13,131 nt of DNA from a virus (Duplodnaviria; Heunggongvirae; Uroviricota; Caudoviricetes), in IMG/VR virus record IMGVR_UViG_2778261446_000002, positions 1-13,131 of that record, one strand, 5' to 3'. Position numbers and translations under genes: made by a program. This document shows, piece by piece, positions 3,351 through 5,500 of the stretch; the first letter of the stretch is position 1; every line of letters starts with the position of its first letter. The notes below the pieces were generated by a model. The model was given only the letters and a program-made list of their open reading frames with translations, did no database searches and was not told the origin of the DNA.

Positions 3351-3647
3351 TCAGTCATTACTGATAGCGCCATAGCGTGAGCGGTAATTACGCAGGCGCG
3401 GGTCGATATATTCAGGGAAGTGGGTATATGTGGCTTTGCGGAATGGTCGGATTGATGTCTGGTAAATTCGCTCTCGTTCTTCTTTCTCTGCAAGCCATAT
3501 ACAGTGGCGAAATTCCTTTTCTTCTTTCGTTTCCTGCGGTAGCGACATTATCCGGTCGTAGTTTTTCCTGAATTTATCCAGCACCTCCGATACGGAATTG
3601 CCGGAACAGCGGCGCGCGTCGTCCGCACCATACAGAGGCGCTGGCAT
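3351..3647 (-). CDS. Hypothetical basic phage protein (98 aa)
   Basis: ATG at 3647 with SD AGGAG 7 nt upstream; begins 14 nt after the SSB stop. Confidence 0.6.
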   Translation of the reverse strand: MPAPLYGADDARRCSGNSVSEVLDKFRKNYDRIMSLPQETKEEKEFRHCIWLAEKEERERIYQTSIRPFRKATYTHFPEYIDPRLRNYRSRYGAISND

Positions 3648-3660
3648 GATTTTCTCCTGA

Positions 3661-4176
3661 TTAAATTGCGTGAATAGCGTGACGAGGGAAGGGGAGGGTT
3701 ACTGGCGCAAAAGGTATATCGTCGTCAAACTCCATAGGTGGTTCGCTGTGATTTACCTGCTTCTGAGGCTGCTGTTTTTGTTGCTGACCGTTATTTCGCT
3801 GAGGTGAAGACTGTTCATTGCTTCCTTGCTTGCCACCAAGCATTTGCATGGTTCCACCAACGCCCACGATAACTTCGGTAGTGAACCGATCCTGTCCGCT
3901 TTGATCCTGCCATTTTCTTGTCCGCAATTTTCCTTCAAGATAAACCTCAGAGCCTTTTCGCAGATATTCGCTGGCAATTTCTGCCAGTTTCCCGCTCATT
4001 ACCACACGGTGCCACTCCGTCTGCTCCTTTTGCTCTCCAGTTTGCTTATCACGCCATTGTTCTGACGTAGCAACTATAAGGTTTGCAAATGCCGTTCCTG
4101 ATGGTGAATATCTGATTTCTGGATCATGCCCAAGGCGACCAATAATGATCACCTTATTTACGCCTCTACTTCCCAT
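3661..4176 (-). CDS. ssb: Single-stranded DNA-binding protein (SSB) with a 15-residue extension beyond the conserved DDDIPF tail
   Basis: N-terminal OB-fold region closely parallels E. coli SSB (SRGVNKVI..., [40 protein letters not shown]), followed by a Gln/Gly-rich linker and the acidic motif MEFDDDIPF, then [15 protein letters not shown] before the stop. Confidence 0.9.
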
Positions 4177-4884
4177 TTATGCCGCCTGTTTTAGTTCGTT
4201 AACTCTGATGTTCATTACCTGAACGCATTTAGCCTGCGCATCCTCATTGCCAGCCATTAATTGCCAGTCATGCTGATAACGTTCTATGAGTTTTTTCTTG
4301 TCAGTTTCTGTTGATGCATAATCGCTGAAGTCTTTCAGGATTTGTTCGCAGTCAACCGATGGAGATTTCTGGTTGGTATTTTCTGGTGATGGTTTGTTAT
4401 CTGATGCTGGGATTGCCCAGCCCGGCAGCGATGGAGGGAGCCAGTAAAATCCTGTTCCATCCTTCAGTTTTGCCCTGTGCCACCCCTGCTTTTTATCGGG
4501 AGATGTTTGTGCGAAACCTTCCTCAAGGTTATACAGATACCGACCGATTCCCCACTGAACGGCAGCGCGCTTCATTGCACCGGAACGACCACCTTTGACG
4601 GCTTCTACCTGCGTGTTTTCAGCAGCATCCCATTTGGTTACCCATTCGGAATCAATCTTTATTGATATGCCGCATTCAACGCCGCCGTTGTTGGGAATAT
4701 CGCGGTATTCATTGCGCCATCCTGCTTTGCCACAAACATCGTCAAGGCGTTTCATGATTGCCCGGTTCGTAACATAAGCCAGCACCATAGCCCACACCTT
4801 GCCATCGCGTGTTTTACCGCTTTGCTGTATTCGCCATTCGATATCTTCAGGGCAGAATGGCTCATCGAATTTGTTCAAATCCAT
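4177..4884 (-). CDS. Single-strand annealing recombinase, Rad52/Sak-like (235 aa)
   Basis: Sits immediately upstream of ssb in the position of lambda bet/exo. The motif GGRSGAMKRAAVQWGIGRYLYNL resembles the Rad52-family annealing core. Family assignment is by pattern, not by search. Confidence 0.6.
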   Translation of the reverse strand: MDLNKFDEPFCPEDIEWRIQQSGKTRDGKVWAMVLAYVTNRAIMKRLDDVCGKAGWRNEYRDIPNNGGVECGISIKIDSEWVTKWDAAENTQVEAVKGGRSGAMKRAAVQWGIGRYLYNLEEGFAQTSPDKKQGWHRAKLKDGTGFYWLPPSLPGWAIPASDNKPSPENTNQKSPSVDCEQILKDFSDYASTETDKKKLIERYQHDWQLMAGNEDAQAKCVQVMNIRVNELKQAA

Positions 4885-4892
4885 AATTCACC

Positions 4893-5063
4893 TCAGAATG
4901 GACATGGCCCAAGGAAATAACGCTGGTTTAATACTTCGACTCGGGACAAATTAAGGCATACCCGCATTCCTTCGCGGTCACCATTATGGCGATACCAGAG
5001 AGCTTTTTGCGTGTACATGCGTCTCTGTAACTTGCTCTCCTTCACTGTGGTTGCAAGTGACAT
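4893..5063 (-). CDS. Candidate small ORF (56 aa), overlapping an alternative ORF
   Basis: ATG at 5063 preceded by a strong SD (GAAGGAGATATTC-ATG); stop 9 nt before the annealing-protein start. Overlaps the 4984-5142 ORF in another frame, so both cannot be fully confirmed. Confidence 0.3.
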   Translation of the reverse strand: MSLATTVKESKLQRRMYTQKALWYRHNGDREGMRVCLNLSRVEVLNQRYFLGPCPF

Positions 5064-5142
5064 GAATATCTCCTTCGTTACCGATTAATTCTTTCATCTG
5101 ACGAATGAATTCTTCGTCTGACCAGTTATCTGTAAAACTCAT
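4984..5142 (-). CDS. Candidate small acidic ORF (52 aa), translationally coupled to the kil-like gene
   Basis: ATG at 5142 overlaps the kil-like stop (ATGA). Product MSFTDNWSDEEFIRQMKELIGNEGDIHVTCNHSEGEQVTETHVHAKSSLVSP. Confidence 0.35.
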   Translation of the reverse strand: MSFTDNWSDEEFIRQMKELIGNEGDIHVTCNHSEGEQVTETHVHAKSSLVSP

Positions 5143-5291
5143 TTCCTGCGATACCACGGAATGTTGATCGCTGATTTCATCGCTTTATTTGCTTCAAGCC
5201 ACATTTTGGAATCACCAATAAATCTGGCTATTACTGCTTTGTTCTGTGCAGCACGAAGCATCTGGTGATTAATGACTATTTCATTGCGCAT
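5139..5291 (-). CDS. Kil-like small protein (50 aa), candidate host cell-division inhibitor
   Basis: ATG at 5291 overlaps the cIII-like stop, with SD GGAGG. Product MRNEIVINHQMLRAAQNKAVIARFIGDSKMWLEANKAMKSAINIPWYRRK. The FIGD.KM core resembles my recollection of lambda Kil, and the position right after cIII fits. Confidence 0.45.
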   Translation of the reverse strand: MRNEIVINHQMLRAAQNKAVIARFIGDSKMWLEANKAMKSAINIPWYRRK

Positions 5292-5410
5292 AACGCCTCC
5301 AGTTGTTTCTTTGCTGCTCTGATTAATTGTTTAACTCGGCGTGATAATTCAGATTCGTGCGGGTAGAAAGCGGACATGACGCCGCTACCCGCGAGCTGAA
5401 AGTGCATCAT
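5276..5410 (-). CDS. cIII-like protein (44 aa), candidate FtsH inhibitor
   Basis: ATG at 5410 with SD AAGGAG. Product MMHFQLAGSGVMSAFYPHESELSRRVKQLIRAAKKQLEALCAMK shows the A.AG...P.ES.L..R...L pattern of the lambda CIII amphipathic helix. The 79-aa ORF-track extension runs through a terminator and is rejected. Confidence 0.5.
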   Translation of the reverse strand: MMHFQLAGSGVMSAFYPHESELSRRVKQLIRAAKKQLEALCAMK

Positions 5411-5474
5411 GGGTAACTCCTTATATTTGATTGCATAACGAAAACGCCTCAAGTGAAGCGTTATTGGTATGCAT

Positions 5475-5500
5475 ATAAAAAAGCCCCCACACTGGAGGGC
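5475..5500 (-). terminator. Rho-independent terminator (minus strand) upstream of the cIII-like gene
   Basis: Minus-strand GCCCTCCAGTGTGGGGGC hairpin followed by TTTTTTAT. Confidence 0.6.

Follow-up and report, generated by a model that had tools for sequence, protein, structure and literature searches.

Two overlapping small open reading frames between kil and the recombination genes of a lambdoid prophage

An overlapping pair of reading frames downstream of kil

We analyzed two overlapping small open reading frames (ORFs), here called ORF1 and ORF2, in a 13,131-nucleotide stretch of viral DNA (IMGVR_UViG_2778261446_000002; hereafter the window, whose positions are used as coordinates). All genes of the locus are on the minus strand, and the order of transcription is cIII, kil, ORF1, ORF2, a Rad52/Rad22-family gene, the gene of a single-stranded DNA-binding protein (SSB) and the gene of Abc2. 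Together these genes make up the early-left operon of a lambdoid prophage, with the ORF pair located just upstream of its recombination module. A preliminary description of the DNA, made from the sequence alone, had called the genes on either side of the pair kil-like and annealing-protein genes, and both names were borne out. The kil gene (5139..5291), which encodes 50 residues and is also named kil in HK97, Sf6 and RefSeq, matched Pfam Lambda_Kil with an E value of 1.7e-20. The gene after the pair (4177..4884) encodes a Rad52/Rad22-family single-strand annealing protein of 235 residues and matched Pfam Rad52_Rad22 with an E value of 5.6e-25.

ORF1 (4984..5142) encodes 52 residues. As had been described, it is joined to kil by an ATGA junction (5139..5142), in which the kil stop codon (5141-5139) overlaps the ATG of ORF1 (5142-5140). 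An alternative GTG at 5157 would extend ORF1 to 57 residues; the ATG is the start that is kept across differing upstream genes. ORF1 lacks a properly spaced Shine-Dalgarno sequence, and an AGGAA abuts its ATG. Because no usable Shine-Dalgarno sequence is present, ORF1 would most likely be initiated by ribosomes that terminate at kil and reinitiate at the ATGA.

ORF2 (4893..5063) encodes 56 residues in the +1 frame relative to ORF1. The 80-nucleotide overlap (4984..5063) covers ORF1 codons 27-52 with the stop codon and ORF2 codons 1-27, and the Shine-Dalgarno sequence of ORF2, AAGGAG (5070..5075), lies within ORF1, six nucleotides before the ORF2 ATG. This arrangement agrees with the preliminary description, two details of which had to be corrected. 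The ORF2 Shine-Dalgarno sequence is not uniquely the strongest in the region: an identical, identically spaced AAGGAG precedes cIII, and kil is served by GGAGG. Between the ORF2 stop codon and the annealing-protein start there are 8 nucleotides (4885-4892) instead of 9. In Escherichia coli-type and Enterobacter-type alleles the AAGGAG of ORF2 was invariant or extended to AAGGAGG. The Shine-Dalgarno sequence of the annealing gene, GAGGTG (4889..4894), begins inside the ORF2 stop codon (TGAGGTGAATTATG). Because the ribosome-binding site of the recombinase gene thus contains the end of ORF2, translation of the two genes is probably coupled.

The pair is already annotated in known phages and is hence not new; what we add is evidence that both ORFs are real, a map of their constraint and testable leads. 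The same ORFs, with the 80-nucleotide out-of-frame overlap, the ATGA junction to kil and a downstream Rad52-like gene, are found as Sf6 genes 30/29, as mEp235_034/033, in the HK022 gp38 region and in ECP1, at 97-99.6% nucleotide identity; the ORF2 protein is 100% and the ORF1 protein 98% identical. The window differs from Sf6 and the like by one change in the ORF1 tail, E46K, which is synonymous in ORF2, and otherwise in nothing substantial. ORF1 (Sf6 gene 30, annotated also in mEp235) matched phrog_2123, the Sf6 gp30 family, over its full length (residues 1-52 of 52, E value of 1.7e-41), and it has the ATGA start overlap and the N-terminal MS..D.WSDE.F motif of that family. ORF2 (Sf6 gene 29, HK97 gp42 family) matched phrog_1723, its residues 1-56 aligning with positions 3-58 of the 58-position profile (E value of 9.4e-36), and its length fits that of the family, about 56-62 residues. 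In Sf6, mEp235, HK022 and other annotations the products are hypothetical proteins. The 266 bases of the locus are 100% identical in E. coli S163-2. Of 5426 complete E. coli genomes, 1115 (~20%) have a related copy, and the NCBI Prokaryotic Genome Annotation Pipeline (PGAP) calls none, one or occasionally two hypothetical proteins in this interval.

Selection in the two reading frames

A 3.5-kb interval contained 47 ORFs of at least 30 residues, mostly spurious, so that ORF length by itself is not above chance. Because length is uninformative here, the evidence for both ORFs is comparative. A first ORF2-based scan of viral contigs gave 80 loci with an identical protein, and a scan of genome contigs with an ORF2 alignment gave 8 loci. 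Because these initial scans gave too little diversity, loci were gathered with ORF2 queries of three divergent types and, in addition, with the ORF1 N-terminus written as a degenerate DNA pattern. We then used the 66 distinct alleles that aligned without frame ambiguity, built a neighbour-joining tree, and by parsimony classed 312 substitution events as synonymous or nonsynonymous in each frame, a comparison that the preliminary description had proposed.

The 79 nucleotides that belong to ORF1 only (region A) had an omega of 0.34 in the ORF1 frame (30 synonymous and 51 nonsynonymous events), compared with 1.09 in the ORF2 frame and 1.43 in the third frame. The order was reversed in the 80-nucleotide overlap (region B), where omega was 3.5 in the ORF1 frame (8 synonymous, 94 nonsynonymous), 0.21 in the ORF2 frame (55 and 46) and 1.20 in the third frame. 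For the 88 nucleotides that belong to ORF2 only (region C), the values were 3.58, 0.09 (93 synonymous, 27 nonsynonymous) and 1.66, respectively. When the events were sorted by position modulo 3, with ORF2 third codon positions first and ORF1 third codon positions last, we found 22, 16 and 44 events in region A, 62, 27 and 13 in region B, and 92, 25 and 7 in region C. The events thus cluster at third codon positions of ORF1 in region A and of ORF2 in the other two regions. When the synonymous fraction was compared with its expectation in binomial tests, the p values were 7.5e-6 for ORF1 in region A (0.37 observed, 0.17 expected), 5e-14 for ORF2 in region B and 1e-35 for ORF2 in region C, with unremarkable control frames. 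Pairwise Nei-Gojobori comparison of six diverged ORF1 types (54-89% nucleotide identity) gave a pN/pS of 0.40 in the ORF1 frame, compared with 0.79 and 1.42 in the other frames. Each gene therefore shows a purifying signature in its own frame, ORF1 only before the overlap.

These data are inconsistent with the idea that ORF1 is the sole real gene and ORF2 spurious. The neat ATGA coupling of ORF1 to kil is the sole point in favor of that idea, which the comparative data refute, as ORF2 is under the strongest purifying selection of the region (omega 0.09-0.21), is predicted to fold with high confidence, is found at loci without ORF1, and has homologues that at 36-48% identity still hold their length and C-terminal motif.

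Within the overlap, the synonymous rate of ORF2 was 55 per 2071 site-branches, compared with 93 per 2656 outside it, a difference that was not significant (chi-square ~2.6). Because the rate is not significantly reduced there, nothing points to a second constraint in the overlap. Beyond its functional part, the ORF1 frame would simply continue unselected until it meets a stop codon inside ORF2, and because the ORF1 tail runs on in an unselected frame, the overlap is genuine but one-sided. The preliminary description had offered two possibilities, that one ORF is spurious or that the overlap is a genuine arrangement of two genes. Selection in both frames and the occurrence of each gene alone elsewhere favor the second, with the qualification that the arrangement is not symmetric, the overlap being constrained in the ORF2 frame only. 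Two products are probably made from the overlap; as judged from the substitution pattern, dual coding in the evolutionary sense does not apply to it. Lambda Rz/Rz1, the MS2 lysis gene and phiX174 are same-strand overlaps in which both frames are functional within the overlap. ORF1 and ORF2 resemble them in using different frames of the same strand and differ from them in that only one frame of the overlap is constrained; purifying selection in both frames, by which true dual coding is recognized, was not found here. The pair thus illustrates clearly how a long overlap can arise without dual coding, from a micro-protein whose functional part ends early.

Causes of the periodicity other than a protein encoded by ORF1 were also considered. 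No antisense ORF spans the region; all three plus-strand frames of 5064-5142 contain stop codons, so that the codon periodicity does not stem from an antisense gene. We likewise rejected a structured RNA element: nothing in the whole window matched Rfam, and the region of ORF1 and the ORF2 start folded like shuffled sequences (z -0.87). Scanning for promoters and terminators gave no candidate within the ORF pair and only terminator-like hairpins upstream of cIII.

Variants, separate occurrence and natural fusions

Among the 104 loci that were found through ORF2 and contain ORF1 DNA, ORF1 was intact in 102; one of the others has a nonsense codon and one a rearranged N-terminus. The 102 intact copies start with ATGA in 101 cases and with GTGA in one, behind differing upstream genes. 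In the rearranged copy (contig L053, ~1420-1440) the first five ORF1 codons are exchanged for unrelated sequence.

The first 21-26 residues of ORF1 are conserved with conservative replacements, as in MSIADTWSEDAFVRLMQDLIG, in MSIRDMSDEQFYHLMKDLIG, which is one codon shorter and in frame, and in the GTG-started VSIADTWTDDAFIRLMKDLIS. The Enterobacter-type variant differs in length by exactly one codon (three nucleotides, in frame) in the ORF1-only part. Beyond these residues the sequences differ completely, and the ORF1-like ORFs end anywhere from residue 31 to residue 71, their whole length being 52-71 residues in ORF2-linked loci and 31-35 residues in HK140-type loci. In the window, the constrained part comprises codons 1-26 (5064..5142; MSFTDNWSDEEFIRQMKELIGNEGDI), as indicated by omega, the third-position excess, the in-frame indel and the AlphaFold model. 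It is acidic, with a charge of -5.5. The model of ORF1 had a predicted local distance difference test score (pLDDT) of 60, with a single helix at residues 9-21 and a tail at about 50. The functional part of ORF1 would accordingly be its acidic N-terminal 21-26 residues, predicted to form a single amphipathic helix. In one Salmonella and one E. coli record the conserved part of ORF1 contains 21-nucleotide in-frame tandem duplications, with EFIRQMK present two or three times (proteins P0001 and P0021; homologous to window 5090-5110).

Each gene also occurs without the other. HK140-type phages have a 35-residue version of ORF1 (MSFTDNWSDEEFIRQMNKMLNQHKEQEKDDDSDSE) in front of a 103-residue gene and RecT, with no ORF2, and they account for about 45 of the 119 matches of the degenerate pattern. 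ORF2 was found without ORF1 in 31 P22-like Salmonella loci, in which kil is coupled by ATGA straight to ORF2, in a Yersinia prophage, where a cIII-like gene is coupled to ORF2, and in Erwinia and others; in further loci of this kind ORF2 follows non-coding DNA or a larger gene. The 103-residue protein of HK140 (L085 1289-1597) gave no Pfam match; near its N-terminus it has ASFTDEDYERI, reminiscent of MSFTDNWSDEEFIR in ORF1.

These observations bear on an alternative in which only ORF2 is functional, ORF1 being a by-product of ribosomes that leave kil and the 79 nucleotides serving as the leader and ribosome-binding region of ORF2 and as a homologous linker for recombination between lambdoid modules. 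Such a linker would explain that the first ~50 nucleotides of ORF1 are near-identical in different module contexts, as expected for a mosaic joint; it does not explain codon periodicity in the ORF1 frame only (omega of 0.34, compared with 1.1-1.4 in the other frames; p value of 7.5e-6), nor that peptide motif, start (ATGA or GTGA) and frame persist in diverged ORF1 copies (54-73% nucleotide identity), one of which has an in-frame indel of one codon. Many phages have ORF2 without ORF1, coupled directly to kil or another gene, which would suit a dispensable ORF1. On the other hand, HK140-type phages keep the ORF1 peptide before a different gene, so that it is not simply a leader of ORF2. The unconstrained tail with its variable stop position, the early nonsense codon in one allele, the lack of a PGAP call and the low-confidence structure prediction all fit the by-product explanation; the lack of significant RNA structure (z -0.87) and of an Rfam match speaks against it. 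On balance we consider this alternative unlikely, though it deserves to be kept in mind.

The preliminary description had also suggested a search for indels that disrupt one frame. Two independent lineages have indels at the same spot of about 8 nucleotides (ATGTACACGCAG; window ~5008-5020), +2 nucleotides in HK97 (L001 1809-2060) and -1 nucleotide in E. coli prophages (L298 2501-2749, L300 649-897). HK97 has homologous DNA between kil and its recombinase gene, which is there Erf and not Rad52-like. Its record contains two extra bases seven positions apart (ATGTcACACGCgAG), which bring ORF1 into the frame of ORF2, create an 83-residue ORF and truncate the stand-alone ORF2. Because the extra bases join the frames, HK97 annotates gp42.1 and gp42 as two starts in one frame. 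These bases were absent from all other distinct alleles collected; either a sequencing error or a mutation private to HK97 could account for them. The -1 lineage corresponds to protein P0030, found on at least 24 contigs with an HK97-like Erf module. Both lineages do break the stand-alone ORF2 frame, as sought; because in both the ORF1 N-terminus is joined to the 37 C-terminal residues of ORF2, they are no argument that ORF2 is dispensable.

The fusions raise the possibility that a programmed +1 (or -2) frameshift in the overlap makes a single product of the ORF1 N-terminus and ORF2, 82-83 residues long, as annotated for HK97 gp42.1. ORF2 is indeed in the +1 frame of ORF1, and the natural in-frame fusions (HK97 gp42.1, P0030 on at least 24 contigs and several on single contigs) indicate that fusion is at least tolerated. 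These fusions, however, come from DNA indels (+2 nucleotides in HK97, -1 in P0030) and not from recoding. The overlap has no conserved slippery motif, ORF2 third positions vary freely in it, the context of the ORF1 stop codon differs by allele type, and folding of the ORF1/ORF2-start region found no stimulatory RNA structure. ORF2 also possesses a Shine-Dalgarno sequence of its own, strong and conserved, and its own ATG; it is present without ORF1 in many phages. We regard programmed frameshifting as highly improbable.

Candidate functions and neighboring genes

ORF2 would be translated from its own strong Shine-Dalgarno sequence as a folded, basic two-helix hairpin. The protein has an isoelectric point of 10, and AlphaFold predicted an antiparallel hairpin with helices at residues 7-27 and 30-51 and a pLDDT of 91. 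Foldseek searches of this model against PDB and BFVD returned generic two-helix hairpins only, none with an E value of 0.001 or better. The C-terminus of ORF2 is YFLGPCPF, and [YF]FLGxxPF, which is always the end of the protein, is the most conserved feature of the family and invariant even in its most distant relatives. The family is small: at 50% identity, 1.84 billion representatives included about 15 true clusters. Neither ORF matched any Pfam family (E values up to 1), and NCBIfam likewise gave no family. In phrog_1723, phrog_2123 and re-annotated RefSeq phage records (NC_005344, NC_019708 and others), proteins of 52-58 residues without a recombinase domain are labelled "recombinase". The label looks like a carry-over from the neighboring gene; for ORF2 it has no domain support, and judging from the model it is unlikely that the 56-residue hairpin is itself a recombinase.

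In about 240 occurrences, a recombinase gene of the Rad52-like, ERF (two types) or AAA_24/Sak4-like (two types) kind was located 7-12 nucleotides downstream of ORF2, and the identical ORF2 protein precedes both Rad52-like and Erf genes. A C-terminal tail of about 45 residues is similar across downstream recombinases with unrelated cores (Rad52-like, two ERF types and one AAA_24 type) and in P22 Erf. Its pattern is ..LK.F......L...Y/F...W..L.G....Q.K...V...R..EL..AA (window 4177-4330, minus strand; L001, L089, L096, L100, L115); the second AAA_24 type (L086) lacks the tail.

For ORF1, the closest lead is P22 Arf, a protein of 47 residues (Pfam PF17585) whose gene directly follows kil, overlaps its end and precedes the annealing gene (kil-arf-erf). 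ORF1 and Arf are both small and acidic and have the motif [W/F]SDEEFI in common at residues 5-13. The PHROG Arf profile matched ORF1-like proteins weakly (E values of 0.038-0.062; 0.038 on ORF1 residues 5-26), and one public record names a 90%-identical ORF1-like protein "accessory recombination function protein". PF17585 is carried by all true Arf relatives and was not matched by ORF1 (E values up to 1) or by 10 ORF1-like variants (E values up to 10). A profile-profile comparison of ORF1 and Arf with hhalign was also weak (P value of 0.016, probability of 2.8%, 20 columns). The conserved C-terminal half of Arf (EQQINLAAERQN..W.EF.GYYS) has no counterpart in ORF1, and arf abuts erf, whereas ORF1 is separated from the recombinase gene by ORF2. 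"Arf-like" is thus a lead from position and a short motif, not family membership, and the resemblance is weak and unproven. P22 Arf aids, but is not essential for, Erf-dependent recombination, and its molecular function was in 2025 described as unknown (PMC12315714).

The preliminary description had pointed to lambda gam as the gene in this place. Lambda gam sits between kil and the annealing-protein gene. The analogy applies to position and no further: Gam differs in size and has no sequence relationship to either ORF (Gam was among the Pfam families that neither matched), and the RecBCD-inhibitor role of Gam is covered in this operon by Abc2.

Taking the comparative and structural results together, we think it probable that ORF1 and ORF2 are both real, separately evolving small genes with a genuine, one-sided overlap. 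Of the functions proposed by analogy, an accessory role in phage recombination, as known for P22 Arf, seems most likely; a host-directed role, like that of the neighbors Kil, cIII and Abc2, is also conceivable. Several points weigh against this interpretation. The constraint on ORF1 is moderate (omega of 0.34) and comes from 81 events in 79 nucleotides, part of which doubles as the ORF2 ribosome-binding site. Recent mosaic recombination, and not long-term selection, is behind some of the near-identity of the ORF1 N-terminus across contexts (83-89% with HK140 and SPN9CC). One natural allele (viral contig L017, ~1430-1450) has a nonsense codon at ORF1 codon 8 (TCA to TAA) with ORF2 intact, and in the 100%-identical E. 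coli S163-2 (NZ_CP058709.1; L302 1513-1766, corresponding to window 4885-5138) PGAP annotates neither ORF. The recombination-accessory function is guilt by association, and the presence of the same ORF2 before Rad52-like and Erf genes speaks against a partner-specific contact with the recombinase core. Literature searches on HK97 gp42, Arf and ribosome profiling of the module gave no expression, proteomic or functional data.

A bolder proposal, which we hold to be quite doubtful, is that in lambdoid recombination modules ORF2 and ORF1 form an accessory layer that has gone unrecognized. As a portable adaptor, ORF2 would dock its FLGxxPF end into a pocket of a partner; ORF1 would be a minimal Arf, and the HK97 and P0030 fusions would be functional single chains. 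The C-terminal tip of bacterial SSB, DDDIPF, docks into partner pockets. By analogy, ORF2 could have as its partner a host nuclease, the SSB network of phage or host, or the recombinase itself, the similar C-terminal tail being common to many of the recombinases downstream; docking of this kind would account for the association of ORF2 with recombinases of three unrelated families. If the proposal were true, Arf-like acidic N-terminal helices would be one family that is wider than Pfam records.

The comparison identifies the residues that matter as ORF1 1-26 and all of ORF2, foremost its C-terminal FLGxxPF. If the accessory role in recombination is true, both genes would be candidates for improved recombineering with Rad52-like, Erf and Sak4-type recombinases and would have a bearing on the function of P22 Arf. 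For annotation, a 250-nucleotide stretch in about one-fifth of complete E. coli genomes is often left blank or given a single ORF at NCBI, and its "recombinase" label in phage databases is unsupported.

The remaining genes of the block flank the pair on both sides. The first, cIII (5276..5410), encodes 44 residues, matched Pfam cIII with an E value of 2e-30 and has AAGGAG 6 nucleotides before its ATG. Terminator-like hairpins with T-runs lie just upstream of it (5443-5500, minus strand), where HK97 annotates a putative terminator. At the other end, Abc2, the anti-RecBCD protein (3351..3647, 98 residues), matched Pfam Anti-RecBCD_p2 with an E value of 4.1e-61. The phage SSB gene (3661..4176, 171 residues, Pfam SSB with an E value of 1.4e-37) has its ATG right after the stop codon of the Rad52-like gene. 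Its product contains MEFDDDIPF followed by 15 more residues, so that the canonical SSB C-terminal tip is internal, and it shares its last 14 residues exactly with the C-terminus of Sf6 gp26, the 159-residue product of a gene of its own after the Sf6 SSB gene. The SSB of Sf6 itself terminates in DDSDIPF. From these sequences, the phage SSB gene looks like ssb joined by a deletion to the 3' end of a gp26-like gene, and mEp235 carries the same SSB/gp26-like fusion.

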